A stretch of DNA of 64,000 bases from the NCBI GenBank assembly GCA_002701845.1, contig NZXG01000051.1:46568-110567 (forward strand), written 5' to 3'. The notes under the pieces were generated by a model. That model was not told the DNA's origin and made no database searches. It saw nothing but the letters and a program-made list of their open reading frames with translations. This DNA is from Pseudomonadales bacterium. GTDB lineage: Bacteria; Pseudomonadota; Gammaproteobacteria; Pseudomonadales; Ketobacteraceae. The translations under genes were made by a program, and so were the position numbers. Shown one piece after another: positions 10,490 through 64,000 of the stretch (within the stretch, counting starts at the first letter, position 1; every line of letters starts with the position of its first letter).

Positions 10490-10566
10490 CAATGGCCGCC
10501 TATAAATCCTTAGCGGATAACTCATCCGCGAACGGCGGGCCAATAACAAGGAACGTGGGGGACAGC

Positions 10567-45992: not shown

Positions 45993-46005
45993 GGTGGCTC
46001 CTACC

Positions 46006-46593
46006 TTATTTGCTGGCGACCGCAATCATGAATTTGCCATCAGGTCCCGTATGTATCTGAGGTTGCCCGCCACTTTTCTGATGATACCAGTTACGTACGG
46101 TGAAGCCCCCCAACTGCAACAATTCCTCCAGCTCTTGAGGGGTGTAATGACGCACATGATAGGGGTTGACCGGGGGCATGGCCCAGGGCCGGATCAACTC
46201 ATTGGGGGATGAAATAATCAGTACATCCGCCAGTTCACCGAACAGTTTTACCGCCTCTTCGGCAAACGTCACATGCTCGATAAATTCAAAGCAAACGATG
46301 GCGTCAAACTGCTGATCTTTGTCGAGCGCCAGCAGTGACTGGTTCAGGTACGTGATATTGGGTCGGGCGAAATACTGTCGGTAGTGCTGGTAGGCTTCAG
46401 TGCTGATGTCCACTGCGGTCACTGCCTGGACCCACTCCGCCAGCATATGGCTGCCGTATCCCACACCGCAGCCGGCATCCAGCACCCGCGCAGTGAGATT
46501 ATTCTGGCGCAGAACTTCAATGGCCAGTTGGTAACGCATGGTATGATCCGGTCTGGATTCTTCCAGCCGGGTGATCATTTGTCTCTCAGCCAT
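46006..46593 (-). CDS. Class I SAM-dependent methyltransferase
   Basis: VLDAGCGVGYGS, AVDIS, FDAIVCFEFIEHV and SSPN motifs. Confidence 0.88.
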   Translation of the reverse strand: MAERQMITRLEESRPDHTMRYQLAIEVLRQNNLTARVLDAGCGVGYGSHMLAEWVQAVTAVDISTEAYQHYRQYFARPNITYLNQSLLALDKDQQFDAIVCFEFIEHVTFAEEAVKLFGELADVLIISSPNELIRPWAMPPVNPYHVRHYTPQELEELLQLGGFTVRNWYHQKSGGQPQIHTGPDGKFMIAVASK

Positions 46594-48301
46594 GTTCAAC
46601 TCCACTTGTTGCTGGCGCCGCCGCTGCCGGGCTGGCAGTCAGACAAACCTGATTGACGTACCAGTGATACCAGCGCCGGTAAAGTTGCTGCCGCTCGGTG
46701 ACGGAATCCTCATTGACCCGGGCCCAGGTCAGGTCCAGATCCTCCAGTTGTCCCTGAATTACCGCGGTCTCATATTCACAGCGACCGAACACCACCACCG
46801 GCACGTCGTACAACATCGCCTCCTGACCGACCCCGGAGTTGATCACGTAGACCGCTCTGCAGCGGGGAATCATTTCGTGAATATCCACGTCGGTAACATA
46901 GCGTACATTGTCATAACCACTGATAATGGCTTTCAGGGGGGCCATGGACGCGAGATTCACGGGATGACCCTTAAACACAATCATGGGCCGGTCTCCGCCC
47001 TGATCAGCCCAGCGGCACAACGCCTCAACGAACGCCTCACAGGACACCGGGGAGTGCCATTGAATGGTCTCATCGTGAGGCAGTTGCAGCGGTACAAAAA
47101 TAAAGGGTTTTCCCGGATCCATGGATTTGCCCCGGGGTTGCTGGAACTTGGTACCACCGGCTTTCAAATAGCGCCGCAGTGCATCGAAAGCGCTGTCATC
47201 ATAGGGTTGCTTTGGGTCAAATTGCTGCACAAACTCAGCGCCGCCCCCCCAGCCCAGCCGATCAACCGTAAACATCCAGGGAAACACTGTCTGCATGTAG
47301 TACAGGGTATTATCATTGCCATGCCAGTTCTGCCGTTCCACGTGAGGCACCAGAAAAACCGTACCCGCCGGAAACAACGACTGGATACTGTTGTTAAACA
47401 TCCAGCGGGGCATCTCAACAATCAAAGGCGATTCCAGCTGTTGATATAAGCCCACCACAAAATCCTGCCAGTGCTGTCGTATCGGGGGCAGCGGCCCGGG
47501 TTCCGCGGTCACCAGGCCCGTGTTCTTGAAGGGAATGTCCAGCCGGGGGGCCAGGATTACATTGGCGAACTGGCAAACCAGTACCTGCCATTGATCAAAC
47601 TCACGTTTCTTTGCCAGATAACGCTCGTTGTCCCGCTTACGGGGGCCTTTACCGGTCCAGATACTGGTACCGGTTCTAAATTCCCAATCCATAAACCGGC
47701 CATCAAAATGATGGACAAATTGTTCCGGCACCTGCTGGAATATACTGGATAGCGCCACCTGATCGGCATACCAATTTAGAGGCATGGTGGCAATGGTTTG
47801 CGCCACCGCATCAGCCACATTAAGGGCTTCATCCGTCATATACACGACGCCGGCCGCCACCTTGGAAGCCTCCCGCAGCCAATGAGCATCGCTGCCAACA
47901 GCAGTACGTGGGAAAAAACCGCAGGGTTTGTCCGGCAGGGACAGCGCCTGCATCACCAGGCAGTCGATATCCAGTACTAACACTTTACCCGCTTTAGGCA
48001 GCAGAGAAGGCAACACCAGAAACCTAAGGCAGGCATAGTACGTCCGGGCTTCCTCCGGGGTCAGGCCTGGTGGCAAGTCATTAAAACTGTAAGTCAGTCG
48101 TCGCTCAGTGGTTGCGTTCAATATTCCCGCCAGGGACAACACCTCGGGGCTTGGATTCACCACGTGCAGATGAATGTCCGAGCCAGCGGCGTCTGCAGAA
48201 TAAACAAACGCGGGCGCATGCTCCATAAAGTACCGGCTGTCACAGGCGGCGAATACTACCGGCCAGGACGGCAGCTCTCCGTAGAGCTGTAAGGCACTCA
48301 T
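46586..48301 (-). CDS. Two-domain glycosyltransferase: GT-A-like N-domain + KpsS/KpsC-like (PF05159) C-domain
   Basis: N-terminal LDID (DxD). C-terminal FVPLQLPHD, FKGHP and VINSGVGQEAMLYDVPVVVFG match capsule-biosynthesis protein motifs. Confidence 0.7.
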   Translation of the reverse strand: MSALQLYGELPSWPVVFAACDSRYFMEHAPAFVYSADAAGSDIHLHVVNPSPEVLSLAGILNATTERRLTYSFNDLPPGLTPEEARTYYACLRFLVLPSLLPKAGKVLVLDIDCLVMQALSLPDKPCGFFPRTAVGSDAHWLREASKVAAGVVYMTDEALNVADAVAQTIATMPLNWYADQVALSSIFQQVPEQFVHHFDGRFMDWEFRTGTSIWTGKGPRKRDNERYLAKKREFDQWQVLVCQFANVILAPRLDIPFKNTGLVTAEPGPLPPIRQHWQDFVVGLYQQLESPLIVEMPRWMFNNSIQSLFPAGTVFLVPHVERQNWHGNDNTLYYMQTVFPWMFTVDRLGWGGGAEFVQQFDPKQPYDDSAFDALRRYLKAGGTKFQQPRGKSMDPGKPFIFVPLQLPHDETIQWHSPVSCEAFVEALCRWADQGGDRPMIVFKGHPVNLASMAPLKAIISGYDNVRYVTDVDIHEMIPRCRAVYVINSGVGQEAMLYDVPVVVFGRCEYETAVIQGQLEDLDLTWARVNEDSVTERQQLYRRWYHWYVNQVCLTASPAAAAPATSGVEHG

Positions 48302-49002
48302 GCCCGCTGGCCCACGCTGGATTTGGCGGCCGCATCTTCCACGTACAGCATGTTGTCCCGCATTTGAAACCATTCACTGGCGTAGTCACAATCAATGTAG
48401 TCACTGAAATAGGGGCCGCCCTCCGTAAAATGCACGTTCTTGGCTGCGGGATCATAGGGGTCATAACCCACCAGGTGATTCCAGCCGTGGTCGATTTCAC
48501 CAATCAAGCCGTCATCTTCCAGCCACTTGAACTGGTGTAACTCCAAACCGCTGGCCGTGTTGACGTACTCGGGGGTCAGAGCTTTGCATCGTGCACAGTT
48601 CATTAGCATCACGCTGGACCAGTTTTTCTTTGCATAACGTGTCTGGGGCTGATTGAGGAACTTGACATCATGGGTGGGACGATGATCGTGCTTAACCACT
48701 TGTACCGCGAACCGGTCATCACGGGCAGCCCAAAGTTGTGCCATATCGCCTCGGACCATCATGTCACAATCCATAAAAATCGCCCACCCCTGATAGTCAC
48801 ACAGAAACGGCACCAGAAATCGGGTCATGGAGAATTCCGTGGAGGATAAATTGTTGCGCGGTCGGGTATGGATGTGGCTTAAATGCTTTAACATCACCGG
48901 GGTGATGGCAACCGGTTCCGATGCGTTTATCTCAATACTATGAGCCAGTACGTTGTAGGCCACAGTTTCTTTTGGATCGTACCCGATAAACACCCTGATC
49001 AT
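48298..49002 (-). CDS. GT8-like nucleotide-diphospho-sugar transferase (plant CDI-like family)
   Basis: FIGYDPKE..AY, STEFSMTRFLVP, FMDCD, KKNWSSVML, LHQFKWL, WNHLVG and HFTEGGP motifs. Confidence 0.8.
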   Translation of the reverse strand: MIRVFIGYDPKETVAYNVLAHSIEINASEPVAITPVMLKHLSHIHTRPRNNLSSTEFSMTRFLVPFLCDYQGWAIFMDCDMMVRGDMAQLWAARDDRFAVQVVKHDHRPTHDVKFLNQPQTRYAKKNWSSVMLMNCARCKALTPEYVNTASGLELHQFKWLEDDGLIGEIDHGWNHLVGYDPYDPAAKNVHFTEGGPYFSDYIDCDYASEWFQMRDNMLYVEDAAAKSSVGQRA

Positions 49003-50786
49003 TCCACACCTCCGCGGGGAGTTGCCAGCCCACTCGACTGGCTGATTTGCAATAAATCGTCTGCCACCCGGGACAGTACCGGCTCCCACCCCTGCAGCTG
49101 TTGTTGGCGATACAGTTTCATCGTCTCATACCAGACGGTTTTATCGCCGCTTTCAAACCAATGCCATAACGGTCGGCTGTTGAGCACCACCCAGGTGGGA
49201 ATCTGCAACTGACCCGCCAGGTGAACTGAGGCATTGGAAACCGAAATTACCAGATCCAGTGCCGACAACTGCGCACAGGCTTTTTCGATGTCATTGAAGG
49301 GATCGAAGTCGTCCTGATAGATATCAACACCGAACGATTGTTTCACCTCAGCCAGTTCCTGCGCCACCGGCCCATACTGAACGTTAACAAATTGAATATG
49401 GGGAAGGTTGAGTATTTCCCCCCACTGGCTGAGCCGGGTGGATTTAATACTGCCAACCGACTTACTCACACTGCGCCAGGAGATGCCCACTTTCAGCTTG
49501 TTGCCAAACTGACGATACTTTTCCACGAACTGTGTCTGCAATTCGGGATTGGGACGAAGGTAGTAAAAGGGTTTACCAAACTTTGCCAGGTCATCCCGCA
49601 GATATCGGCCCAGGTCCAGCAGTTCGGCTTTATAATCCATACGGTCCAGTACAGGCTGCGGTATCGCCTCATCGGCATCGTAAAAGCGTACCTGTGGCAG
49701 CGAGCGGGACATCAAGGGCTTGATTTTTCCGGTGCAGGTCATGGTGACTTCGACTCCCGCCGCGAGCACCTCCCGCAACATCTGGCTATGCAGAATCTGA
49801 TCCCCAATACCCTGCTCCGAAGCAATCAACAGGGTCTTTCCCACCTCCAGCTCCCCCTGCCACAGGGGCGCGGGACAACGGTCCAGGGCATCAATGTCCA
49901 TGCCATAAAGTTCGGCGCCGTGAGTTTTGCGATGGGAAATTTCCTCCCAACCTTCTTTCAAGCGGCATTGGCGTAATAACAACACCCCAGCATTGGTACG
50001 GGACACCGCCAGCCCCGGTACCCTTTCATTAACCTTCTGATAATGCTCCAGCGCCAGGGCATTTTCGCCAATCATTGCCAAAGCCTCGGCAATCACATGA
50101 TGGCCCCGCCAGCTTTGCGGATGACACTTCAAAATCAGATTCCCGGCTTTGATGACAGGCTCGGCGTACTTAATGTCCACCAGCGCCTTGCTGTAGTTTT
50201 CCGCGATGATGGTTTTGGCCAGTACGAATAAGCCGATTTCGTGGCTCGGATCTTTCGCCAGCACCTGCTTGGCAAAGCCCCGGGCCTCTTCGTTACGTCC
50301 TTTTTCGTGGAGAATCTCGGCCACCAGGCTTAACGCTTCCAGGCGATCCGTATGCTCAATGTCCTGCAGCAACGCCTGCAGTGCCAGGTCCCGATTCTGT
50401 TTATGATTCCAATCCAGGTAGGCCTTGGCCTTCATGAAGTGGGCTCGGTCATGGTCAGGCCGTCTGGCGATCGCCTGATCAAACGCCTCCACAGCCTGGG
50501 AAAATTGCTGCAAATGATAGTAGGCCAGCCCCAAGTTGTAAGGCAGATCCGGGTCTGACTGATTTTTAGCGCAGGCCCGTCGCAGATAGTCGCAGGCGGT
50601 CCGATATTGCTCCATTTGCAATAGCAAGCCGCCATACAGGCTCAGCAGCCGCTGATTGCCCGGTGCCTTTTTTAGCAGTTTCGCGTACTCTTTTTGCGCC
50701 GGCTTCAAATCGCCGGCAAGATGCATCCGCTTGGCATCATCGATTTGCCGGTCGAGGTTGGATTGGGTCTGGGTGGCGGCCGCCAT
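48999..50786 (-). CDS. TPR-repeat protein with C-terminal GT-B (GT9-like) glycosyltransferase domain
   Basis: Multiple TPR helices (PDLPYNLGLAYYHLQQFSQAVEAF), W.GE, EQGIGDQI, KVGISWRS and LDLVISVSNASVHLAG motifs. Confidence 0.82.
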   Translation of the reverse strand: MAAATQTQSNLDRQIDDAKRMHLAGDLKPAQKEYAKLLKKAPGNQRLLSLYGGLLLQMEQYRTACDYLRRACAKNQSDPDLPYNLGLAYYHLQQFSQAVEAFDQAIARRPDHDRAHFMKAKAYLDWNHKQNRDLALQALLQDIEHTDRLEALSLVAEILHEKGRNEEARGFAKQVLAKDPSHEIGLFVLAKTIIAENYSKALVDIKYAEPVIKAGNLILKCHPQSWRGHHVIAEALAMIGENALALEHYQKVNERVPGLAVSRTNAGVLLLRQCRLKEGWEEISHRKTHGAELYGMDIDALDRCPAPLWQGELEVGKTLLIASEQGIGDQILHSQMLREVLAAGVEVTMTCTGKIKPLMSRSLPQVRFYDADEAIPQPVLDRMDYKAELLDLGRYLRDDLAKFGKPFYYLRPNPELQTQFVEKYRQFGNKLKVGISWRSVSKSVGSIKSTRLSQWGEILNLPHIQFVNVQYGPVAQELAEVKQSFGVDIYQDDFDPFNDIEKACAQLSALDLVISVSNASVHLAGQLQIPTWVVLNSRPLWHWFESGDKTVWYETMKLYRQQQLQGWEPVLSRVADDLLQISQSSGLATPRGGVE

Positions 50787-50838
50787 AGCTCGGTCTGTCT
50801 CCACAGTACGTCAGTATTTCGTCGATACCGGGTGGATT

Positions 50839-50854
50839 TGCAAAAGCCATGCCC
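50839..50854 (-). promoter_or_regulatory. Sigma54 promoter of the glycosylation operon
   Basis: GGGCAT-GGCTT-TTGCA immediately after the fleQ stop; FleQ-like GTCAGTATTTCGTC at 50810-50823. Confidence 0.65.
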
Positions 50855-50857
50855 GGC

Positions 50858-52294
50858 TCACGCCCGGTTCAGATCGTACTTCCGCATTTTTTCCACCAGA
50901 GTAGTACGGCGGATTTTGAGTTTTTCCGCGGCCCTGGCCACCACTCCGTTGCAATCATCCAGAGCCTGCTTAATCAGGTTACATTCCAGATTGGCGAGAT
51001 ACTCTTTGAGGTCGATACCATTGACGGGCAACAATGCTGGTGTGTCCATGGAAACGTAACCGGGCATGCCCATGGGTACATCAGCCATGTCATCAGGTAA
51101 CTCCCGCTCCTCGTCCGCGTCATCCACATGACGAAAGCGTTTCGGCAGATCGGAAATGCCAATCACACCATAGGGGTGGGTGATAACCAGCCTTTCCACC
51201 AGGTTGGCCAGCTCCCGCACGTTCCCCGGCCACTCGTGCCGGCACAGCCCCATGATGGCCGCAGAATTAAAGCGGATGGAACCGCGTTTTTCATTTTCGA
51301 TACGGGCCACCAATTCATTCAGCAGTAAAGGGATGTCCTCGGTGCGCTCCCGCAGCGGTGGCATTTCGATGGGGAATACGTTGATGCGATAATACAAGTC
51401 CTCCCGAAACTTACCCTCGGCAATATGGGCTTCCAGATTCTGATGGGTAGCGGCGATCACCCGCACATCCGCCTCATAGGTTTTCGAACCTCCCACCCGT
51501 TCAAAAGTACGTTCCTGTAACACCCGCAACAGCTTGACCTGCATATGCAGCGGCATATCGCCAATCTCATCCAGGAAGATGGTGCCCCCCTGGGCCAATT
51601 CAAAGCGGCCGGGGCGACTGGTGATGGCCCCGGTGAATGCCCCTTTTTCATGACCGAACAACTCGCTTTCCAACAGTTCCTGGGGAATGGCACCGCAGTT
51701 CACCGGCACGAACGGTTTATGTCGTCGGTGGGAATTGTAATGAAGATTGCGGGCCACCACTTCCTTACCGGTACCGGACTCACCGGTAATCAACACATTG
51801 ACGTCTTTGTCCGCAACCTGCGCCATCAGTTCCCGCACCTGGACGATGGAGCGGCTGGTACCCACCAGACTGCGGAACAGCTGGGCCTCCCGCCGCTGGG
51901 CCCGGGCCGGATCGGCACCCATGTGATCCTTGTACACCTGGGCCCGATGCAGCGTATCCATCATTTTGGTGTACTTGGGCGGGGTTTCGATATTGGCGAT
52001 AACAGCCTTACGCACTTCTTCTGTTTCCGCCGCCGCCAGTTCCACGTCATCCAACAGAATAAACGGTAAGGTAGGGTCCCAGTCCATCAAGCCCTCGGCG
52101 GCATTGAGCGCGTTGACCATTTCACCAATCAACACACAGGTAATTTCACCCGGCTGGCAGGCTTCCATCACCTGTTGCCAGTGGCGGGAGTCACAGACGA
52201 TGGTCTCCTCGCCGATAAAATCCAGAACCACTTTGATGTCATGGCAACGCTGTTCATTGTCATCAATCAGCAATACTTTAATTTCTCGCCACAT
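50858..52294 (-). CDS. fleQ: Flagellar master regulator FleQ (FlrA)
   Basis: Atypical REC lacking the phospho-Asp pocket, [29 protein letters not shown]. Confidence 0.95.
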
Positions 52295-52398
52295 ACCCAG
52301 CCATCTTCAGCCTATTCCCTGAACTCAAACACAAGCGACGCATTTTTTGACGCCAACTCAATGGTTATTCTTCAGTAAAGGCTATAGGTAGTGGATCA

Positions 52399-52412
52399 GT
52401 CAAATTACTGAC
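52399..52412. promoter_or_regulatory. FleQ-box-like palindrome upstream of fleQ
   Basis: GTCA-AATTAC-TGAC, a full GTCA-N6-TGAC match. Confidence 0.55.
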
Positions 52413-52454
52413 ACAAGTTTTTTTGCGGATTGTCAGGCTGGGGTGCAGGGAGGG

Positions 52455-52769
52455 TCAACGGCCGATCTGCTGGGCCACATCCAGATACTTATGCGCGCTG
52501 TTACGGCTGCGGCTGAGGGTGCTCATTTGCTGGAGGGTTTCCCGCTTGGCCTGGTCCACCCGGGTTACCGCCTGGTGATAGCACTGCACCAGCGCCTCCA
52601 GGGCGGGTACCAGTTCCGCCAGCTCCGGCTGTTCGCCGCCGCTGGCCAGGGGCAGCCGGGCCCGCAGGAAGCGTTCGCAGTCGAGGCTGGTTTGTCGCAG
52701 CTGATCCAGGTCCTGGCTTTGCAGCGCGGCTTCCATGCGCGCCTGAAATTCCCGTATCTGTGCCAACAT
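52455..52769 (-). CDS. fliT: FliT-like flagellar chaperone
   Basis: Short helical protein directly after fliS; called by position. Confidence 0.55.
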   Translation of the reverse strand: MLAQIREFQARMEAALQSQDLDQLRQTSLDCERFLRARLPLASGGEQPELAELVPALEALVQCYHQAVTRVDQAKRETLQQMSTLSRSRNSAHKYLDVAQQIGR

Positions 52770-52777
52770 GAGGTATC

Positions 52778-53206
52778 CTAGCCGGCCACCGGCTCGCTGC
52801 CCTGAGCATAAATCTGCTGTGCCTGGTCGGCAATGCCGTCCCAGCCGGTTTTGACTTCCCGCAACAGTCGGATCACCTCTTCCACCGGTGCTTTACTGTG
52901 CTCCCGGGAGGCATCGTACAGACGCACCGTCATATAGTCGTAAAGGCCATCAAGATTGCGGGCAATATCGCCGCCTTTGTCATGATCCAGAAAACTCTGC
53001 AGGCCGCCCAGGATGGTGATGGTCCGCCCCAGATGGCGCCCCCGGCCCTCGTAGTCATTACGCTCAATACAGCCCAGTGCCTGCTGCAGATTATCCAGCG
53101 CCCCCTGATATAACATTCCGATCAGTTGATGGGGGTTAGCGCCTTCGACACCGGTTTGCTTCTTCATCTGAGCGTATTGTTGTGCACCTTTGTTTACGTT
53201 CATCAT
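52778..53206 (-). CDS. fliS: Flagellin chaperone FliS
   Basis: ANPHQLIGMLYQGAL, LDHDKGGDIARNL..LYDYM and EVKTGWD motifs. Confidence 0.96.
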   Translation of the reverse strand: MMNVNKGAQQYAQMKKQTGVEGANPHQLIGMLYQGALDNLQQALGCIERNDYEGRGRHLGRTITILGGLQSFLDHDKGGDIARNLDGLYDYMTVRLYDASREHSKAPVEEVIRLLREVKTGWDGIADQAQQIYAQGSEPVAG

Positions 53207-53218
53207 CTTACCTGTTCG

Positions 53219-54655
53219 TTAAGAGGATTTTTTACCGGTGAGCCCGGCTTTGATCACGTCCAGTTGCTGGGTAACGAAATCACCCGTACTCTGCAGCTGA
53301 CCCACCAGAATATCCAGATTGGTGTACTGTTGGCGGATACGTTCCTCGAATGACTCCATCCGCAGGTTAAGCTGAGCCCGCTGTTCATCAATGTCCTTCA
53401 GCTGTGTGAGGAAAGTGCTGTTGCGGCTGGCCAGAATGCCGTCGCTACGGAGAAAGCTGTCCAGCTTGTCATCCAGGGATTTGATGATGCCGTTATCCCC
53501 GGCCAGCAGCTCCGCCACGTCGTCAAAGTTGCTGTTAAGGGCGCTGCCCAATTTGGCGGGGTCCAGCCCCAGGCTGCCATCCCGCTGGGTGGTGATACCA
53601 ATGGATGCCAGGGTGTCGAAAGCGCCGGACACCCCTTCCACCACGTCGGAAATGCTGCGCCGGATCTGAGTCTCGATGGTGCGGGCGGCAAAGTCCCCGG
53701 TGAGCAGCCCGGCTTCCTGTGATTCAACATCGTAGTTGGTGAGAAAATCCATGGTGTCACTGAGGGTATTGAAGGCTTCGACAAATTCCCCCAGCTTGGT
53801 GTTGATGGCGGATTTATCCAGCCCCACCGAGAGGGTTGCGTTGACTCCGGGATCTGCCGCCAGGGCGGTGATAGTCACGCCCTGAATGGCGTTTTCAAAC
53901 GTATTGTTGGCGCTGGTGACCACGTATTCATCGTCGATTAACAGCTCTGCATTGAGCGCCTGACTCTTCTCCACCATATTGCCATTGAGGGCATCGGTGA
54001 AGTTAAAGGCGGACAGCCCGCTGTTGTCCGTATCATTGCCATCGGAGTCACCACTGGCAGCCACGGTGATGTTGTTGTCCGCGCCGGTGTCATCGGCGGT
54101 GAGCACCAGCTTGGATACGGTGCCAGCGGCGCCATCGCTGATGGTCAGGATACTGGCGGTGATTCCGGGGTTGTCCTCCGCATCATTAATGGCATCCCGA
54201 ATGCCGGCCAAAGTGTTGTTCTGGCCGCCGACAATGGGCACCTGAAAACTGGCGGAGCCCAGGCCCAAAGTCAGGGTACCGGCCCCCACGGCATCATCAG
54301 GCCCGGTAAAATCCGCGCTGGAGACGAGCTTGTGGTTGGAGGCCAGCTGAGTCACCTGGATGGCTGTGGAGCCCACCGCCGCGTTATTGGTGGCGGTGGC
54401 GGTAAACGTGCTTTCATTGGAGGAGGTGGCAGCCCGGGCGGCAAGATCGTTCAGGGAGGAGAGGCCGGAAAGTGCCGCCTGAAAATCCTTCAGCGCGCCT
54501 TTCAGTGAGCCATAGGCGGAGATATCCGCCTGAATCTGGATTTCCCGGGTATCGAGCCGTTCCGCTTTGGGGGCCCGTTCCGCCTCCGTCAGCGTCTCTA
54601 TAATGGTTTCAATGTCCAGGCCGGACCCGGTGCCGGCTGCGGTAATGGAAGCCAT
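53219..54655 (-). CDS. fliD: Flagellar filament cap protein FliD
   Basis: MASITAAGTGSGLDI, SAYGSLKGAL, SANNTFENAIQGVTI motifs; C-terminal coiled coil. Confidence 0.96.
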   Translation of the reverse strand: MASITAAGTGSGLDIETIIETLTEAERAPKAERLDTREIQIQADISAYGSLKGALKDFQAALSGLSSLNDLAARAATSSNESTFTATATNNAAVGSTAIQVTQLASNHKLVSSADFTGPDDAVGAGTLTLGLGSASFQVPIVGGQNNTLAGIRDAINDAEDNPGITASILTISDGAAGTVSKLVLTADDTGADNNITVAASGDSDGNDTDNSGLSAFNFTDALNGNMVEKSQALNAELLIDDEYVVTSANNTFENAIQGVTITALAADPGVNATLSVGLDKSAINTKLGEFVEAFNTLSDTMDFLTNYDVESQEAGLLTGDFAARTIETQIRRSISDVVEGVSGAFDTLASIGITTQRDGSLGLDPAKLGSALNSNFDDVAELLAGDNGIIKSLDDKLDSFLRSDGILASRNSTFLTQLKDIDEQRAQLNLRMESFEERIRQQYTNLDILVGQLQSTGDFVTQQLDVIKAGLTGKKSS

Positions 54656-54775
54656 AGTGGCTAACCTCGTAATCGATCAATGGCGGCACGCAAAGAAATT
54701 GACGCAAGCCGTGCCTGATGCCTGTGAGTGCAATTCCCATTCCAGGTTTATGTCACCCCGTCATCTCTACACAGG

Positions 54776-54802
54776 TTATCGGCTGCCACTGGCAATGCTT
54801 TA
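54776..54802 (-). promoter_or_regulatory. Sigma28 promoter of fliDST
   Basis: Perfect TAAA-N15-GCCGATAA; the -35 includes the flaG TAA stop. Confidence 0.88.
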
Positions 54803-55291
54803 GGCCTTGGAATTGAGTATGGAACCCCCTTCCAGATTGTCCAGCCCCAGGCGGATGGACTCTGCAATCTGCAGCACGTCTTCCGGCGGAATCTGGCGGA
54901 TTACCTTATCGGTCTCCTTATCAATGACAGTGATAATGACCCGGTTTTCCTCCTCGGCCACCTGGAAATCCAGGCTGCGCTGATTTTTCTGCATTAACTC
55001 CCGCACCTTGGGAATGGCTTCGTTGACCTTCTCCTTGATTTCTTCCCGACGGGCCTCCGCCTGGGCCTGGGCCTGGGCAGACAGGGAGGTTTCTTCCGCA
55101 GCCGGTTTCGGCTCCACCGGGGGGCTTTGCTTCACTGAGACCTGATTGTCCGGTACCGGCGGCTGACGCTCACTGATGTCGACCTTGTCCCTGGTCTGCT
55201 GCGCGCCGGAGCCGTTGGCTCGGCTGCCGGGCGTCAGCGCCACTGTTCTCAAGTCGATATTGCTCGGTTTATCACTGATCATGAGGGCCAC
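54800..55291 (-). CDS. flaG: Flagellar protein FlaG
   Basis: RSLDFQV.EE...VI.VIDKETDKVIRQIPPE motif. Start could be 55282. Confidence 0.92.
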   Translation of the reverse strand: MALMISDKPSNIDLRTVALTPGSRANGSGAQQTRDKVDISERQPPVPDNQVSVKQSPPVEPKPAAEETSLSAQAQAQAEARREEIKEKVNEAIPKVRELMQKNQRSLDFQVAEEENRVIITVIDKETDKVIRQIPPEDVLQIAESIRLGLDNLEGGSILNSKA

Positions 55292-55300
55292 CTATACAAC

Positions 55301-55336
55301 AAAAGCGGGTACCCGAGAGAGTATCCCGGGTCCCGC
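55301..55336 (-). terminator. Terminator/attenuator between flagellin A and flaG
   Basis: GCGGG(T)ACCCG...CGGGTCCCGC stem followed by TTTTGTT on the minus strand. Confidence 0.6.
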
Positions 55337-55381
55337 GCCAAACCAATGACCTTGTTGTAGGCTGCTGTCACTGGCCGGGGG

Positions 55382-56908
55382 TTACCCCAGCAGCGACAGC
55401 GCCTGCTGCGGTAACGCATTAGCCTGAGCCAGAACCGAGATACCGGCCTGCTGCAACACCTGGTTCTTGGACAGCTTGGCGGTTTCCGCCGCGAAGTCCG
55501 CGTCCCGAATCCGGCTGTTGGCAGCCGACAGACTCTCGGATACCGCCGACAGGTTACGGATGGTGGATTCAAAGCGGTTCTGAATCGCACCCAGGCCTGC
55601 GCGGAAGGAGTCGATCTGGGCCAGGGCACTGTCGATGGACTCGATGGTGATGTTGGCACCGGCCACCGTGGTAATGTCCGCATTGGCCACCGTTCCCACC
55701 GCCTGCACGTTGGCATCGTCGGTGGCAGTGACATTGGACAGGGTGGCAATGGTGTCCTGGGCCGAGATGGTCACCGATCCGGACTTGAAGTCACCGGTTT
55801 CATCCGCCACCGTGGCGTTGTCGGCACCGTCGAACAGCAGGTCCGCCGCGTTATTGGTGGTGGTGAAGACAATATCCCGACCGTCTTCGGCGGTCAGCGA
55901 CAGGCGGCCGTTCTCGTCCAGCGCCGCGGTCACGCCGGTTATGTCGGATTTGGCGTTGATGGCATTCACCAGGCTGCCGTCGGCGTCTTTTTCCTGCACA
56001 GTCACCGGGCCAATGTCCACCCCGTTGATGGTGACGTCACCGTTGGCCAGTTCGCCGGAGCCCACGTAGGCATCCGCCGCCGCCACGGTGGTGGTCAGGT
56101 CGGTGTAGTCGTAGGTGGTCTTGGCGGTGGCGTACACCCCTTCCAGACCTTCCACGCCGTCATCCCGCAGCTCGTTGATGCGTTCGGCCAGGGACTTGGC
56201 CACCCCGGCGCCATAATCGGCGGCGGTGGGGTCAGTGAGGCCGGCAGTGGCCGCTCCGGTAATGGCGCCACCGTTGGCGGCACTGAGTACGTCCACGGTG
56301 GTGCCGCCGGTACCCACGGTAATTTCAAAGCTGCTCAGGGTGGTCGCGGCCGCGGCTGCCAGGCTTGAGGCGGCGCTCTGCACCGCGCCGGGCTGGGAGC
56401 CCAGGGCACTGGCCCGGGCATCCACACCACTGACGGAAACCGTCTCGCCGGCGTTGGCGCCGATCTGGAAGTTCAGCGAGGAGATGGAGCCGTCCGCCAC
56501 TTTGTTACCGTTAAAGGTGGTGGTGTTGGCAATCCGGTCGATTTCCGACACCAGCTGGGACACCTCCTCCTGCAGGGACTGGCGGTCCGCCGCGCTGTTG
56601 GTGTCGTTGGCAGACTGCACCGCCAGGTCCCGGATTCGCTGCAGGGAGGTGGTGATTTCGTCCAGGGCGCTCTCTGAGGTCTGGGCGAAGGAAATACCGT
56701 CGTTGGCGTTACGTACCGCCACGTTCAGGCCACGGACCTGGGTGGTGAAACGGTTGGAAATGGCCAGACCGGCGGCGTCGTCCTTGGCGCTGTTGATGCG
56801 CAAACCAGAAGACAGACGCTGCAGGGAGGTCTGCAATGAGCTTTGCGACTTGTTCAAGTTGCGCTGCGCATTGATGGATGAAACGTTAGTGTTAATGATC
56901 TGGGGCAT
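55382..56908 (-). CDS. fliC: Flagellin, copy A (508 aa)
   Basis: [20 protein letters not shown]-terminus, [14 protein letters not shown] and [13 protein letters not shown]-terminus. Confidence 0.97.
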
Positions 56909-56946
56909 CGTGTGTCTCCTGCGTTTTAACACGACCTCAAATGAGG
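55382..56946. repeat. 1565-bp direct repeat, copy 1 (flagellin CDS + 38 nt leader)
   Basis: Same translation and same alternate-frame ORFs as 58844-60408; offset is 3462 at both ends. Confidence 0.92.
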
Positions 56947-57004
56947 CTCTTCAATTACCACCGCCTGCGGGAGGCCGTGTTCCTATATGCTTGCTTCAAT
57001 TAGG

Positions 57005-57031
57005 TTATCGGCCACTTGCGCTGCGCCTTTA
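57005..57031 (-). promoter_or_regulatory. Sigma28 promoter of flagellin A
   Basis: Perfect TAAA-N15-GCCGATAA with an AT-rich upstream tract. Confidence 0.9.
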
Positions 57032-57091
57032 ACCAGCTTTTAAACGGATATGCTCTAAATAACGCCTGTTTAATAACTAACCCTGCAGGCA

Positions 57092-58759
57092 CTAACCCAA
57101 GAGGCTCAGTACCTGACCCGGCTGGGCATTGGCCTGGGCCAGCACGGAAATGCCCGCCTGCTGTAATACACTGGAGCGACTCAGGTTGGCGGTCTCCGCC
57201 GCGTAGTCGGCATCGACAATCCGGGACCGGCTGGCCGCCAGACTTTCACTGACAGCGGACAGGTTGGCCACGGTGGAATCCAGCCGGTTTACCACCGCAC
57301 CCATGCGGCCCCGTTGGGAATCAATATATTGCAATGCCGAATCAGCCAGGCGCACCACATCACCGGCGTTCTCGGTGATATCAATATCGTGCATACCCAG
57401 CTCCCAGGTACCAAAGGTACCCAGGTCAAGATCCAGGGCCTGCCCGGAGCCGGCGCCCACCTGCAGAGAAAACTGCTTACCCTCGAACTGGGCATAAGCG
57501 TCTTCAATTACCAAACGAAAATTTTCCAGCGGTTTGGCCGATGAGTTGGTGTCATTGGGAAGTATGTTCTCAGCGGTATAAACCGGGCCGCCATCGGCAT
57601 CAAGGCCGCCGATGGCTCCGGTATCTTCATTGCTGAGGTCCATATTATTGATATAAGTGGCGCCGGCACCGCCGGTAAAATCCGACTCAAAGGAGGACAA
57701 GTCAGCAAAGGCTCCGCTGCTGGCATTCTGGATGGCGGCATCCAGATCCGCGCTATCGTTTTGCGCCAGATACACCATTATGTCCTTGATGCCATTGCCG
57801 CCGGCGGCTTTGATCTCATCGTGTAAATAACGGGTGGCCGCATAAGAAGCGGAATAGCCCTCGCTATTGGCCACCGACCCGAAGGCGCTGACGATGCCAC
57901 CCACGCCCACCGATGCGATGTCCGCTGCCACCCGCTCGTCGGCCCCCTGAATGAATTCTGCCGTGCCTTCTTTGAACCAGTCCGGCAAGGCTGCGAAATT
58001 GGTGGCGCGACCCATTATCGCATGTACCATCTCGTGGGCAATAATACGGTCATTAAAATACGGGGAGGTACCGCCATTGGGCAGATTGGCAGGCTGAAAG
58101 TCCTCCATATCCACATTCAGCGTCATACCGATGGTTTTGCCATCAGTGTCCTGGTAGCCGCTGATAGAGGCAGCCACATTACCGGCCCCATCACTGTAAT
58201 CCAGGTTCACCCTTAAGATATTGTTATCGGACTTGATACCAAAGAACTGCTCAATGCGGGTTTCCGCCTCCGCCAGCCAGTAAAAGTTCAGCCCTTTCAC
58301 CACGGCACTGCGGTTCTGGTCCTCGAAATCCGAGCTTCCCGCCCGATTAAACAGGGTGCGGCCACCAAAGGTGGTGGTGTCGTTCACGCGATTGATTTCA
58401 TTCAACCGCTGTTTCACTTCCAGCTGCAAAGAGGATTTATCGGTTTTACTGAGGGAGTCAGAGGACGCCTGCAGTGCCAGATCACGGATTCGCTGGATAT
58501 TGCCGGTCATTTCATCAAGGGCACTCTCCGCGGTTTGCAACAGGGAAATCCCATCGTTGGCATTGCGGATGGCCTGGTTCTGACCATTGATTTGGGTGGT
58601 CATACGGTTACTGATGGCCAGGCCGGCGGCGTCGTCACTGGCGCCATTGATGCGCAGGCCACTGGACAGCCGCTGCAGGGTCCGGGTCAGCCCGGTTTGC
58701 TGGGTTTCAAGATTACGTTGAGCATTAACCGAGGCAATATTGGTATTGATATTGAGCAT
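57092..58759 (-). CDS. Flagellinolysin: flagellin with a central gluzincin metallopeptidase domain
   Basis: Flagellin N and C termini flank [11 protein letters not shown] (HExxH) and a downstream WFKEGTAEF third-ligand Glu motif. Confidence 0.9.
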
Positions 58760-58792
58760 GCTGATCCATCCACAACAGCCCCACACTGAACA

Positions 58793-58825
58793 CCCGGACG
58801 CCGCCAGCCTTAGCCGGCGTCCGGG
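58793..58825 (-). terminator. 11-bp stem-loop between flagellin B and flagellinolysin
   Basis: CCCGGACGCCG / CGGCGTCCGGG stem with only a weak TGTT tail. Confidence 0.55.
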
Positions 58826-58843
58826 TTACCCATCAGCGAATCA

Positions 58844-60370
58844 TTACCCCAGCAGCGACAGCGCCTGCTGCGGTAACGCATTAGCCTGAGCCAGAACCGA
58901 GATACCGGCCTGCTGCAACACCTGGTTCTTGGACAGCTTGGCGGTTTCCGCCGCGAAGTCCGCGTCCCGAATCCGGCTGTTGGCAGCCGACAGACTCTCG
59001 GATACCGCCGACAGGTTACGGATGGTGGATTCAAAGCGGTTCTGAATCGCACCCAGGCCTGCGCGGAAGGAGTCGATCTGGGCCAGGGCACTGTCGATGG
59101 ACTCGATGGTGATGTTGGCACCGGCCACCGTGGTAATGTCCGCATTGGCCACCGTTCCCACCGCCTGCACGTTGGCATCGTCGGTGGCAGTGACATTGGA
59201 CAGGGTGGCAATGGTGTCCTGGGCCGAGATGGTCACCGATCCGGACTTGAAGTCACCGGTTTCATCCGCCACCGTGGCGTTGTCGGCACCGTCGAACAGC
59301 AGGTCCGCCGCGTTATTGGTGGTGGTGAAGACAATATCCCGACCGTCTTCGGCGGTCAGCGACAGGCGGCCGTTCTCGTCCAGCGCCGCGGTCACGCCGG
59401 TTATGTCGGATTTGGCGTTGATGGCATTCACCAGGCTGCCGTCGGCGTCTTTTTCCTGCACAGTCACCGGGCCAATGTCCACCCCGTTGATGGTGACGTC
59501 ACCGTTGGCCAGTTCGCCGGAGCCCACGTAGGCATCCGCCGCCGCCACGGTGGTGGTCAGGTCGGTGTAGTCGTAGGTGGTCTTGGCGGTGGCGTACACC
59601 CCTTCCAGACCTTCCACGCCGTCATCCCGCAGCTCGTTGATGCGTTCGGCCAGGGACTTGGCCACCCCGGCGCCATAATCGGCGGCGGTGGGGTCAGTGA
59701 GGCCGGCAGTGGCCGCTCCGGTAATGGCGCCACCGTTGGCGGCACTGAGTACGTCCACGGTGGTGCCGCCGGTACCCACGGTAATTTCAAAGCTGCTCAG
59801 GGTGGTCGCGGCCGCGGCTGCCAGGCTTGAGGCGGCGCTCTGCACCGCGCCGGGCTGGGAGCCCAGGGCACTGGCCCGGGCATCCACACCACTGACGGAA
59901 ACCGTCTCGCCGGCGTTGGCGCCGATCTGGAAGTTCAGCGAGGAGATGGAGCCGTCCGCCACTTTGTTACCGTTAAAGGTGGTGGTGTTGGCAATCCGGT
60001 CGATTTCCGACACCAGCTGGGACACCTCCTCCTGCAGGGACTGGCGGTCCGCCGCGCTGTTGGTGTCGTTGGCAGACTGCACCGCCAGGTCCCGGATTCG
60101 CTGCAGGGAGGTGGTGATTTCGTCCAGGGCGCTCTCTGAGGTCTGGGCGAAGGAAATACCGTCGTTGGCGTTACGTACCGCCACGTTCAGGCCACGGACC
60201 TGGGTGGTGAAACGGTTGGAAATGGCCAGACCGGCGGCGTCGTCCTTGGCGCTGTTGATGCGCAAACCAGAAGACAGACGCTGCAGGGAGGTCTGCAATG
60301 AGCTTTGCGACTTGTTCAAGTTGCGCTGCGCATTGATGGATGAAACGTTAGTGTTAATGATCTGGGGCAT
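58844..60370 (-). CDS. fliC: Flagellin, copy B (identical translation to copy A)
   Basis: Same 508-aa sequence as 55382-56908. Confidence 0.97.
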
Positions 60371-60408
60371 CGTGTGTCTCCTGCGTTTTAACACGACCTC
60401 AAATGAGG
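58844..60408. repeat. 1565-bp direct repeat, copy 2
   Basis: Identity with copy 1 begins at the TAA stop and ends at ...CCTCAAATGAGG. Confidence 0.92.
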
Positions 60409-60465
60409 TGCTATCAGTGCCACCACCCGCTGGGGAAGTGTAACTGCCGTCTGAATACAGATCCT

Positions 60466-60492
60466 GTATCGGCGGGATCGAGGGAGACTTTA
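60466..60492 (-). promoter_or_regulatory. Sigma28 promoter of flagellin B (and probably flagellinolysin)
   Basis: TAAA-N15-GCCGATAC. Confidence 0.85.
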
Positions 60493-60523
60493 GCCCTGGA
60501 GCAACTTTTTATACCCAAATAAG

Positions 60524-60547
60524 AGAAGCGGCCCAAGGGCCGCTTCT
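60524..60547 (-). terminator. Terminator of flagellin C
   Basis: AGAAGCGGCCC-AA-GGGCCGCTTCT perfect inverted repeat followed by CTTATTT on the minus strand. Confidence 0.75.
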
Positions 60548-60573
60548 AGTTGCTAAATGCCAATTTGTCCAGT

Positions 60574-62103
60574 TTATCCCTGTAGCAGTGAAAGTACCTG
60601 CTGAGGTAAGGCATTGGCCTGGGCCAGTACCGAGATACCCGCCTGCTGCAACACCTGATTCTTGGACAGGTTAGCCGTTTCCGCGGCGAAATCCGCATCC
60701 CGAATCCGGCTGTTGGCTGCCGACAGACTTTCGGATACCGCGGACAGGTTACGAATAGTGGACTCAAACCGGTTTTGTACCGCGCCCAGTTCGCCCCGGA
60801 AGCCATCGATTTGCGCCAGGGCACTGTCGATAGCCTCCATGGTAATATTACTGCCTTCTATGGTGGTAATATCAGCGTTGGCGATAGTACCCACCGCCTG
60901 AACGTTGTTGTCGTCGGTAGCGCTCTGCCCCGCACCCAGAGCAATGGTATCCTGCGCCGAAACAGTGAGTGTGCCGGCCTTGAAGTCATTGGTCTCTTCA
61001 GCCACCGTCACATTGTCACCCCCATTAAAGAGAATACCAGCGGCGCCGTTCTGGGTGGATATCACCAGGTCACGACCGTCCTCCGCAGTAAGAACCAGGC
61101 GGCCGTTGATATCGATGCCTGCACTGACCCCGGTCTGCGGTGTCTTGGCGTTAATCGCATCCCGTAACGCGCCGTCGGCGTCCCGTTCCTGAATCGTCAC
61201 CGGACCAATGGCAACGCCGTTGATGCTAAGGTCACCGTGGGCTAACTCCCCATCGCCCACATAAGCATCCGACGCCGCCACCGTGGTGGTGATGTCAGAA
61301 TAGTCATAGCTGGATTCAGCCGTGGCGTACACCCCTTCCAGACCATCCACGCTATCCTGGCGTAACTCATTGATCCGTTCCGCCAGCGATTTGGCAGCAC
61401 CGGCGCCATAACCGATTCCGGAGGGATCCGTCAGCGCACCCACACTGGATCCGGTAATGGCACCGCCACTGTCGGCACTGAGCACATCAACGGTGGTGCC
61501 ATTGGTACCGACAGTGATCTCAAACGAACTGAGCGTGGAAGCGGCAGCGGTTGCCAGGCTGGAGGCTGTACTCTGAACCGCTCCCGGCTGGGAGCCCAGG
61601 GAATTAATGCGGGCGTCCACACCGGATACCTCAACGCCTTCTCCAGAGTTGGCACCGATCTGAAAATAATAAGAGGACAAAGACCCATCCAGTACATTAC
61701 GGCCGTTGAAGGTGGTGGTAGTGGCAATCCGATCCACTTCATCGATCAATTGGTCCACCTCAGCCTGCAACGATATACGGTCAGCCTGGCTGTTGGTGTC
61801 ATTGGCGGACTGTACCGCCAGATCGCGAATCCGCTGTAGCGCGGTGGTGATTTCATCCAAGGCACTTTCCGTGGTTTGTGCCAGCGAAATACCGTCATTG
61901 GCGTTACGTACGGCCACATTGAGACCCCGCACCTGGGTAATAAATCGGTTTGAAATCGCCAAACCCGCGGCATCGTCCTTGGCACTGTTGATGCGCAGGC
62001 CCGATGACAGTCGCTGCAGCGACGTTTGTAGTGAACCCTGCGACTTGTTCAGGTTGCGTTGAGCATTGATTGACGAAATATTCGTGTTAATAATCTGAGG
62101 CAT
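60574..62103 (-). CDS. fliC: Flagellin, paralogue C (509 aa)
   Basis: Flagellin N/C motifs; collinear with A/B but with many substitutions. Confidence 0.96.
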   Translation of the reverse strand: MPQIINTNISSINAQRNLNKSQGSLQTSLQRLSSGLRINSAKDDAAGLAISNRFITQVRGLNVAVRNANDGISLAQTTESALDEITTALQRIRDLAVQSANDTNSQADRISLQAEVDQLIDEVDRIATTTTFNGRNVLDGSLSSYYFQIGANSGEGVEVSGVDARINSLGSQPGAVQSTASSLATAAASTLSSFEITVGTNGTTVDVLSADSGGAITGSSVGALTDPSGIGYGAGAAKSLAERINELRQDSVDGLEGVYATAESSYDYSDITTTVAASDAYVGDGELAHGDLSINGVAIGPVTIQERDADGALRDAINAKTPQTGVSAGIDINGRLVLTAEDGRDLVISTQNGAAGILFNGGDNVTVAEETNDFKAGTLTVSAQDTIALGAGQSATDDNNVQAVGTIANADITTIEGSNITMEAIDSALAQIDGFRGELGAVQNRFESTIRNLSAVSESLSAANSRIRDADFAAETANLSKNQVLQQAGISVLAQANALPQQVLSLLQG

Positions 62104-62255
62104 GATTGTCTCTCCTGCTTTCCCCGACCGGGCATCTCTTACCGGGAAGGATTAATTCAAAATTGTTGGTATCAGAGCTGTTGGGCCTTGAGCACTAGCC
62201 ACTCCGCCATTGTCCAGTTCTTAGTAAAGTTTCCTGTTTCATAAATTAATTCGTG

Positions 62256-63479
62256 TCAGATAAATTCAAAAAGTGACAAACCCTGCACCTTGACGAAGCT
62301 CTGCTGAGCCGCCTGTAGTGCCAGTGTGCGCTTGTTCAATTCGGTAATGGCTTCGGCATAATCCAGATCTTTCACTATCGAAAGCGCTGACTCGGATTCC
62401 ACCTTGAGACTTTCATTGATCGCTCCTTCGCTGTCGATCACGTTCAGGCGACTACCGACACTGGCTCGAATCTCATCTACATGCGTCATGGCCTGATCCA
62501 GATTCTGCATTCCCAGATTGAGGGCATTCTGAAATGCGGCCTGTAAGCTGGTGGTATCATTGGGCATCTGCAATGCTGCAACAATCTGGTTAACAGTGGT
62601 GAACAGGGACTGACGATAACTTGGCTCTACGGTGAAACTGTCACCAGCGGCGGGCACTCCGGACAGCGAATAGCTGATGCCATTGAAAGTGACTTTGCTG
62701 TCTTCGTCATAAAGCGGCAGCGGCGCGGCGTATACCGGCCCGGTATTGGCGCCGGTAATCTGATACTGCAGGTTACCGGAACCATTGAGTGAGAAATCGA
62801 TGGTGTAGGTGTCCGCCACATAGGTGGTAGGGTCCTCAAGCACCGCGCTACTGATGACTCCAGTGCCCAGATTGCTGGTACCGGCCGCAGTCACAAAAGC
62901 GCCATTACCGGTTTTAATATCGAAGAACACCTCATCGCCGCTGTTTCCGCTTTCAATACGTACCGAAGTATTCACATTGACATTGAGCACACCCTGGTCG
63001 CCATTGTAGGAAATGGTGCCGGTACCATCGCTGGTAAACGGTTTTACGTTGGACTTGAATCCGGAAAACAGATATTCCCCGTTTGCCAGCTGGCTGTTAC
63101 CCAGGCCCACCAACTCATCCAGTCGCTGCTCAATCTCTACGGTAATAGCCTTGCGGTCTGACTGATTGAGAGTGGCGTTGGCAGCCTGCAATGACAGCTC
63201 GCGAATACGTTGTAATATATCGGTGACATTATTCAACGCGGATTCCTGTAATTGCAGGCGAGTGCCGGCAGTCTGGCCGTTGGCAATAAACTGGGTGGCG
63301 TTGTCGATCTGGCGCTGAAGATCCAGCGCCACCGCAGAACCAATGGGATCATCGGATGGCTTCAGAATCCGGGTACCTTTGGATAGCTGCAGTTGGGTCT
63401 GATTCACCTGGCTCTGGTTCTCCAGAATGGCATTAGAGCCCTGGCTGAATGTCTGCGACGTTGAGATACGGATACTCAT
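62256..63479 (-). CDS. flgL: Flagellar hook-associated protein FlgL
   Basis: RIST.Q, LSKGTRILKPSDDP, GEYLFSG.K, YNGDQG and DLDYAEAIT motifs. Confidence 0.95.
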   Translation of the reverse strand: MSIRISTSQTFSQGSNAILENQSQVNQTQLQLSKGTRILKPSDDPIGSAVALDLQRQIDNATQFIANGQTAGTRLQLQESALNNVTDILQRIRELSLQAANATLNQSDRKAITVEIEQRLDELVGLGNSQLANGEYLFSGFKSNVKPFTSDGTGTISYNGDQGVLNVNVNTSVRIESGNSGDEVFFDIKTGNGAFVTAAGTSNLGTGVISSAVLEDPTTYVADTYTIDFSLNGSGNLQYQITGANTGPVYAAPLPLYDEDSKVTFNGISYSLSGVPAAGDSFTVEPSYRQSLFTTVNQIVAALQMPNDTTSLQAAFQNALNLGMQNLDQAMTHVDEIRASVGSRLNVIDSEGAINESLKVESESALSIVKDLDYAEAITELNKRTLALQAAQQSFVKVQGLSLFEFI

Positions 63480-63489
63480 GACCCCAACC

Positions 63490-64000
63490 TCACAGCGAAC
63501 TGATGATGGTATCGAACAGTTCGCTCGATACCTGAATAACACGGGCGGAAGCCTGATACGACTGTTGGAACCGAATCAGATTGGCGGCCTCCTCGTCCAG
63601 ATTAACCCCGGAAATGGATTCCCATTGGGCCTGGGACTGGTTGAGTATGGTTTCCGCCGCCTCCTGGCTCACGGCTGCATCATTGGTGCGAGTGCCCACA
63701 CCGCTCATCAGCTGGCCGTAAGCCCCCTGGTAATTGATGGTGCCATTGGCGATGGTTTTGGCAGCCGCCAGCTCGCCCAGTAGTAACATATTGCGGTTGT
63801 CTGCGACACCACCATTGTTGTAACCGATATTAACCACATCATTGGTCGCGGGCGTTCCACTGAATACCACATCGTATCCGGAGGCGGGATACAGTCCGGC
63901 CTGTTCCAACAAGCCATTATTCTGGCCGGGGGTAAAGGCAACCCCCGCAGCCACCGTGGTGGAGGTGCTGGTATCGATGACGTCGTAGGTTGTACCGCTG
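63490..64000 (-). CDS. flgK: Flagellar hook-associated protein FlgK (3' part; truncated by the window edge)
   Basis: ADNRNML.L and SISGVNLDEEAANLIRFQQSYQASARVI C-terminal signature. Confidence 0.95.
   Translation of the reverse strand, partial: SGTTYDVIDTSTSTTVAAGVAFTPGQNNGLLEQAGLYPASGYDVVFSGTPATNDVVNIGYNNGGVADNRNMLLLGELAAAKTIANGTINYQGAYGQLMSGVGTRTNDAAVSQEAAETILNQSQAQWESISGVNLDEEAANLIRFQQSYQASARVIQVSSELFDTIISSL

Follow-up and report, generated by a model that had tools for sequence, protein, structure and literature searches.

Homogenization of gene copies within a genome is a known process that has been documented for flagellin paralogues and for tuf. Concerted evolution of fla paralogues in the Alteromonadales is listed in Table 1 of PMC6053082, and that of flaA and flaB in Campylobacter (Meinersmann & Hiett 2000; Harrington 1997) is cited in PMC5126078. 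Both systems (PMC5126078, PMC6053082) consist of neighboring paralogues with separate promoters that are alike within a genome while their orthologues diverge, and both exchange alleles of the hypervariable domain. The tufA and tufB genes of Proteobacteria, two copies encoding an abundant protein, are held near-identical over long periods by RecA-dependent conversion (PMC6053082). In other RecA-dependent systems, long perfect direct repeats around a dispensable gene give rise to its deletion or amplification. A further relevant group is formed by the flagellinolysins of Clostridium haemolyticum and Hylemonella gracilis (FlaMP / FliA(H)), in which a central HExxH metallopeptidase domain is enclosed by flagellin N and C domains and which occur beside a nonproteolytic structural flagellin that is the dominant filament protein (PMC5595980, PMC7643111). 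Here we analyzed a locus within a 64,000-nucleotide (nt) stretch of contig NZXG01000051.1 from a Pseudomonadales bacterium of the Ketobacteraceae (GCA_002701845.1), hereafter called the window, in which two identical flagellin genes, fliC_A and fliC_B, flank a flagellinolysin gene. Our data make it highly probable that the two copies are kept identical by recurrent recombination, that is, by concerted evolution through gene conversion or cycles of unequal crossing-over.

The locus resembles the Campylobacter and Alteromonadales flagellin genes in the respects listed above but differs from them in several others. Identity between the copies is perfect (0 differences in 1565 bp), compared to ∼95% in known tandem flagellin pairs, and both copies carry sigma-28 motifs, whereas Campylobacter uses sigma-28 for one gene and sigma-54 for the other. 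The two tuf genes are widely separated and belong to different operons, while the copies in the window are direct repeats 1.9 kb apart, so that deletion and amplification are also possible. The unusual feature is the flagellinolysin gene nested between the converting copies; every crossover outcome would delete or amplify it. As in C. haemolyticum and H. gracilis, the organism also encodes a nonproteolytic structural flagellin; activity and filament incorporation of its flagellinolysin are predictions.

When the window was compared directly with itself, positions 55382 to 56946 (copy A) and 58844 to 60408 (copy B) were identical at 1565/1565 bases at an offset of 3462 bp, in agreement with the preliminary description, which had also ascribed different promoters and downstream hairpins to the two copies, as motif scanning and folding bore out. 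Identity ends sharply on both sides: the outer flanks on the stop-codon side match at 1 to 4 of 10 bases, and at the upstream edge a mere ∼20 nt of weak similarity are left. In these minus-strand genes, one edge of the repeat is the first base of the stop codon, and the other lies 38 nt 5′ of the probable start codon (ATG at 56908 for copy A and 60370 for copy B, with a protein start of MPQIINTN). The repeat thus contains the coding sequence (CDS), the ribosome-binding site, and the final portion of the leader. Between the copies lies a 1897-bp middle piece that carries the flagellinolysin gene.

We next turn to whether the duplication exists outside the assembly, the preliminary description having named an assembly artifact as an alternative. 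We compared the depths of the repeat, its flanks, and the middle piece in Logan unitigs (31-mer graph) of independent metagenome runs from several studies. In runs X1 and X2, the repeat formed a unitig of its own, exactly 1565 bp long; in X5 and X6, it was split or ran on into a flank. The unitigs of X1 ended at the expected places, with the left flank stopping at 55411, the middle covering 56917 to 58873, and the right flank starting from 60379. The depth of the repeat was 11.6 versus 5.7, 6.7, and 6.4 for the single-copy pieces in X1, 20.2 versus 11.7, 10.5, and 11.6 in X2, 10.1 versus ∼5 to 6.6 in X5, and 7.9 versus ∼4 in X6, and X4 showed the same pattern. The copies contained no difference that a 31-mer graph would split. 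The presence of four distinct repeat junctions, together with a repeat at ∼2× and a middle at ∼1× depth, shows that the duplication exists in nature.

Many metagenome contigs from ENA and Tara also encode the exact proteins; apart from two single-base differences, one in contig L044 and one in L217, they match the window at 100.000% identity. MEGAHIT contigs break at the repeat ends (38 nt 5′ of the ATG for the start of L042, and the stop codon for the end of L043), and the long scaffolds L040/L041, L044, and L045 pass through both copies in the order C-B-L-A, where L is flagellinolysin. Short-read assemblers cannot span 1565 bp, and scaffolds reuse the same unitig, so a single flagellin gene written twice by the assembler would be conceivable. 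Set against this are all four distinct junctions and the doubled repeat depth in five window-type runs (X1, X2, X4, X5, and X6) and in X16 for a second lineage, i.e., in several studies and both lineages, and we regard an artifact as almost certainly wrong.

The second lineage, V, is represented by contig L215 of a metagenome-assembled genome (MAG; GCA_034189855.1) and by metagenome runs X3, X8, X10, X16, and X17; the lineage of the window is designated W. The gene order on L215 is the same as in the window: flgL, fliC_C, fliC_B, flagellinolysin, fliC_A, and flaG. Its two flagellin CDSs (6375 to 7916 and 9852 to 11393) are identical over 1561 bp at an offset of 3477; as in the window, this stretch begins at −38, and it stops 19 nt short of the CDS end. 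The copies differ at two synonymous sites, gene positions 1524 and 1530, both within these last 19 nt. We considered this 19-nt shift of the 3′ boundary as a different end of a conversion tract and rejected it, because it is more simply explained as the edge of a divergent block on the flaG side. In X16, the left flank contig (29 kb), middle contig (1976 nt), and right flank contig (22 kb) had depths of 21, 22.1, and 22.1, respectively, and the flagellin was represented by two abutting unitigs at 43.2 and 41.3, ending exactly at the equivalent of 56946.

A sliding comparison of the two lineages (window 50041 to 64000 versus L215) revealed a mosaic of blocks with 99 to 100% identity and blocks with 72 to 85% identity. 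The former comprise the 5′ part of flgL, the first ∼450 nt of the flagellin gene, the region upstream of copy A (upA), the fliD-fliS-orf104-fleQ 5′ segment, and a block made up of the flagellin 3′ end, the region downstream of copy B (dnB), and the first 900 nt of the flagellinolysin gene. The latter comprise the segment from the 3′ part of flgL through fliC_C to the region upstream of copy B (upB), the flagellin center, the 3′ part of the flagellinolysin gene, flaG, and the 3′ part of fleQ. The flagellin center (∼750 nt, with indels) shows 72 to 83% identity between W and V, in both copies. The mosaic looks like the product of repeated recombinational import at a surface-structure locus. We had considered the averaged W/V ratio of nonsynonymous to synonymous substitution rates (dN/dS) as a clock but dropped it once this mosaic was evident. 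Downstream of fleQ (∼50185 to 50900), identity between W and V falls to 53 to 65%.

The paralogues are therefore closer to each other than to their orthologues: copies A and B differ at 0/1565 positions in W and at 2/1542 in V, while W and V are 87 to 88% identical overall at the nucleotide level. The duplication predates the W/V split, as the gene order is the same and dnB, the 5′ part of the flagellinolysin gene, and upA are 99 to 100% identical. Since the architecture is shared, and the flagellin center differs between W and V and is the same within each, at least one A-B homogenization followed the split. The preliminary description had offered ongoing gene conversion or homogenization as one option, and this one is borne out by the two lineages.

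The regions just upstream of the tract point in the same direction. Over 94 nt, upA and upB of the window have a similarity of 0.55, compared to a shuffled null of 0.53; the spacing to the promoter motif is nevertheless the same in both. In V, upB still resembles upA (0.65, a value reached by 1/500 shuffles) and carries the genus-wide leader motif. Homology of upA and upB in the window was tried as a claim from sequence similarity and set aside as not significant; support for paralogy comes from the positional motifs and from V's upB. Because upA and upB are near-random while the CDS and 38 nt are identical, we conclude that the promoter and leader were duplicated long ago and then diverged. 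This bears on the other option of the preliminary description, a very recent duplication with too little time to diverge and no homogenization. Zero differences in 1565 bp would fit such an event, as would the close relationship of W and V in many blocks. It is at odds, however, with promoter and leader regions that have diverged to random-like similarity, and with a lineage V that has the same architecture and near-identical spacers and whose flagellin center, 17 to 28% different from that of the window, is the same in both of its copies. We consider a recent duplication very unlikely.

We propose that fliC_A and fliC_B, the genes of the major (A-type) flagellin, are paralogues of long standing, each with its own sigma-28 promoter and leader, and that the homogenized tract would be limited by the unrelated flanks to the interval from −38 of the ATG to the stop codon. 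Since the split, at least one lineage would have acquired a new flagellin center in both copies, most simply by one import followed by A-B homogenization: the hypervariable middle would be replaced in one copy, and the new allele would then be copied into the other. Both promoters would thus always deliver one and the same structural flagellin. The mechanism could be either nonreciprocal gene conversion or cycles of unequal crossing-over.

Several points weigh against concerted evolution as we describe it. The two mechanisms are indistinguishable here. No read spans a repeat, so the order flank-repeat-middle-repeat-flank rests on graph topology and depth; no Nanopore or PacBio runs with the locus were found. 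L215, like the metagenome scaffolds, was assembled from short reads, with the same unitig used for copies A and B, and identity within V rests on the lack of bubbles and the 2× depth, not on long reads. Finally, an identical foreign flagellin allele might have entered both copies of one lineage in two independent horizontal transfers, without any exchange between A and B. That the locus is a mosaic of imported blocks lends this some plausibility. Two identical imports with the same end points would nevertheless be needed, into copies that are otherwise identical over 1.56 kb, and a single import followed by conversion is far simpler; we judge the double import extremely improbable. Concerted evolution of the pair remains the reading we prefer, and the locus is a clean natural example of this process in bacteria obtained from metagenomes, with two lineages, identical copies, and a lineage-specific hypervariable middle. 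It shows how the replacement of a surface antigen in one copy can spread to the second so that the filament stays homogeneous.

The third-codon-position GC content (GC3) of the homogenized pair is 0.80 in W and 0.74 in V, compared to 0.62 and 0.56 for fliC_C and 0.66 for the flagellinolysin gene, and the pair also lies above its neighbors. In relatives with a single A-type gene, the GC3 values of A-type and C-type genes are about equal. The raised GC3 of the pair could be due to GC-biased gene conversion or to codon adaptation of a highly expressed gene.

The preliminary description had further suggested that recombination between the repeats switches proteolytic filaments on and off, or amplifies the unit, at the population level. 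Unitig depths could be used on both sides in six runs (X1, X2, X4, X5, X6, and X16). In these, the middle-to-flank ratio was ∼0.8 to 1.2 and the repeat-to-flank ratio ∼1.7 to 2.0, and no recombinant subpopulation was visible by unitig depth at a sensitivity of ∼10 to 20%; reads shorter than the repeat give recombinants no diagnostic junction, which makes frequencies below that level invisible. Runs with 50 to 90% of the locus words (X6 to X8 and X10) were checked for a missing middle piece, and all contained it. Population-level switching or amplification thus finds no support in these ratios of ∼1 and ∼2.

One MEGAHIT contig, L047 (ERZ27288289 k119_1741016), corresponds exactly to the window minus 3462 bp, with fliC_C, one flagellin gene, and flaG. 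We examined it as proof of deletion and rejected it, because it is otherwise 100% identical to the common clone and junction gaps in a low-coverage k=119 graph allow either exit from the repeat. In other low-coverage MEGAHIT contigs (L042, L043, L046, and L048), whether the path crosses the repeat or stops in it is arbitrary, and L046, L048, and L049 take the other exit. L047 is thus most probably an assembler path through the repeat.

These results bear on a RecA-dependent cassette whose deletion and amplification would give sizeable subpopulations with non- or overproteolytic filaments, such variation being the function of the arrangement. Perfect 1.5-kb direct repeats 1.9 kb apart are a recombination substrate, L047 matches the deletion exactly, and unequal-crossover homogenization, if operating, must yield such intermediates. 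The deletion product, P_B-fliC-flaG, is moreover a coherent locus, as the preliminary description had stated, and equals the arrangement of all seven relatives in the genus. On the other side stand the depth ratios of the six runs with no visible subpopulation, the explanation of L047 as an assembler path, the persistence of the full arrangement in two lineages, and the irreversibility of deletion. Since the excised 3462-bp circle lacks replication functions, deletion is a one-way loss, not a switch, and on/off variation is, we infer, the wrong model. We therefore think the cassette unlikely and, with no subpopulations detected and loss irreversible, do not class the locus as phase variation, in spite of its likeness to direct-repeat deletion systems. 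A related idea, that cycles of expansion and collapse both homogenize the pair and yield rare cells without or with extra flagellinolysin as bet-hedging between particle-attached and free-swimming life, with the raised GC3 as a footprint of GC-biased conversion, strikes us as improbable to a similar degree.

Under concerted evolution, occasional deletion between the repeats would be expected, and flagellinolysin would then be lost for good. The full arrangement is the dominant form and has lasted in two lineages; judging from this persistence, flagellinolysin and both flagellin copies are probably maintained by selection. Flagellinolysin here sits inside the flagellin locus of a widespread marine Ketobacter-like bacterium, its loss always one recombination away, and that it persists despite such easy loss points to a benefit of proteolytic flagella for the cell. 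The locus would also offer a convenient model for the rates of conversion versus deletion between direct repeats.

The middle gene is a flagellinolysin by curated family and domain layout. Its product scores 404.1 bits against the NCBIfam equivalog NF033876 (curated cutoff, 205), covering model positions 1 to 384 of 384, and contains the Pfam Flagellin_N and Flagellin_C domains with the HEMVH motif within the central insert. By analogy with characterized flagellinolysins, it is predicted to be a minor filament subunit; this fits C. haemolyticum, whose flagellinolysin is the second most abundant filament protein beside the dominant structural flagellin (PMC5595980). The nearest homologues, on L001 and L002, are 68 to 69% identical at the amino acid level. 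No other flagellar gene lies near the flagellinolysin gene of L001 (10 kb on each side) or L002 (3.5 kb and 9 kb); on L001, genes for an acyltransferase and a TonB-dependent receptor adjoin it. None of the other flagellinolysin loci examined, on L001 to L004, L008, and L011, showed such a gene nested in an identical flagellin pair, and a scan of JGI metagenomes with the flagellinolysin gave no close relative, the best match being 51%.

Putative promoters were assigned by consensus match to a sigma-28 (FliA) class pattern, TAAAG-N14/15-GCCGATAA. The motifs of copies A and B, TAAAG-N14-GCCGATA(A/C), both lie ∼122 nt from the ATG in otherwise dissimilar sequence, and a third such motif was found upstream of fliD, at 54802. 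The motif scan found none upstream of the flagellinolysin gene or fliC_C, and a scan for sigma-70 promoters and terminators gave no enrichment over shuffled sequence. The 84-nt spacer between copy B and the flagellinolysin gene contains no promoter motif, and the strong hairpin within it ends ∼30 nt before the flagellinolysin ATG. Judging from these motifs, low-level transcription of flagellinolysin probably depends on read-through from P_B past this hairpin, which has no U-run. In four metatranscriptomes, contig depth was 25 to 44 for the repeat, 2 to 9 for the flagellinolysin gene, and ∼3 to 14 for fliC_C where it was assembled. It speaks against leaning on these values that contig depth is a poor measure of expression, and the contrast is only suggestive. 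One metatranscriptome contig ends at 56997, near the expected start of the P_A transcript, which is weak evidence for that start.

The closest flagellin loci in species-representative genomes belong to Ketobacter MAGs (82 to 83% amino acid identity). Seven relatives (L050 to L055 and L061) have flgL, a C-type and an A-type flagellin gene, flaG, fliD, fliS, and fleQ; flagellinolysin is present in none of these seven loci. The spacer and terminator 3′ of copy A are 88 to 93% identical to the spacer between the A-type gene and flaG of L052 to L054, and since this spacer is orthologous, copy A occupies the ancestral A-type place. Because the relatives have two flagellins and no flagellinolysin, the clade of the window would thus have gained an extra A-type copy and the nested flagellinolysin gene. 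The C-type gene, fliC_C, stands outside the homogenization, and orthologous C-type genes occur in all relatives examined.

All genes of the locus are on the minus strand, in the order of transcription flgL-like, fliC_C, fliC_B, flagellinolysin, fliC_A, flaG, fliD, fliS, an open reading frame (ORF) of 104 amino acids (aa), and fleQ. The coordinates of the main features are given in Table 1.

Table 1. Features of the flagellin locus, with positions in the window
Feature	Position	Strand	Basis or remark
flgL-like gene	62256-63542	-	
fliC_C, third paralogue, 509 aa	60574-62103	-	80% aa and 74% nt identity to copies A and B
Putative sigma-28-type promoter motif of copy B, TAAAG-N14-GCCGATAC	60466-60492	-	Consensus match, 1 mismatch
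Repeat copy B, fliC_B, identical to copy A	58844-60408	-	CDS 58844-60370; 1565-bp unitig at 2× depth in metagenomes
GC-rich hairpin without U-run, between copy B stop and flagellinolysin ATG	58792-58826	-	Fold and motif scan
Flagellinolysin gene, 555 aa	57092-58759	-	Flagellin N and C domains around HExxH metallopeptidase domain (HEMVH)
Putative sigma-28-type promoter motif of copy A, TAAAG-N14-GCCGATAA	57005-57031	-	Consensus match, 0 mismatches
Repeat copy A, major flagellin gene fliC_A with 38 nt of 5′ leader and ribosome-binding site	55382-56946	-	CDS 55382-56908, 508 aa; Pfam Flagellin_N/IN/C; exact identity with copy B
Intrinsic terminator 3′ of copy A, stem and UUUUGUUGU U-run	55296-55336	-	Fold; conserved in relatives
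flaG, directly 3′ of copy A	54800-55291	-	Pfam FlaG

The 5′ leader of the A-type flagellin (window 56909 to 56990, minus strand; L050 to L055 and L061) contains elements conserved across the genus. The first is ACACGGCCTC-N3-6-GAGGC, and the second is a hairpin, CCTCA-N-TGAGG, followed by GTCGTGTT, located just 5′ of the ribosome-binding site. In L051, this hairpin carries a compensatory change (CCTCG...CGAGG). The identity tract of the repeat starts exactly at this second leader hairpin. The conserved leader is possibly an element of posttranscriptional control or stability.

The region upstream of fliC_C (62104 to 62255) is without a sigma-28-type motif, unlike those of fliC_A and fliC_B. 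By analogy with minor or alternative flagellins of other polar flagellates, fliC_C may use another sigma factor.

The same clone was recovered from many Tara Oceans and other marine assemblies (window 45382 to 64000 versus L040 to L049, L129 to L134, and L217), with 100.000% identity over up to 18.6 kb and single-nucleotide polymorphisms, one each, in two contigs. It also occurs in a run labeled as soil metagenome (X3) and in a run labeled with an organism name (X18). It is either a clonal lineage with a cosmopolitan distribution or a contaminant that recurs in laboratories or reagents.

The 104-aa ORF between fliS and fleQ (52455 to 52769, minus strand) has no Pfam or NCBIfam match; it was called as a gene on all related contigs, with 99% protein identity between W and V. 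Judged by its location, it may encode a FliT-like chaperone. In the relative L054, a GSCFA-family gene (Pfam PF08885; 11724 to 12677) lies between the C-type and A-type flagellin genes, the same intergenic position as that of the extra genes in the clade of the window.

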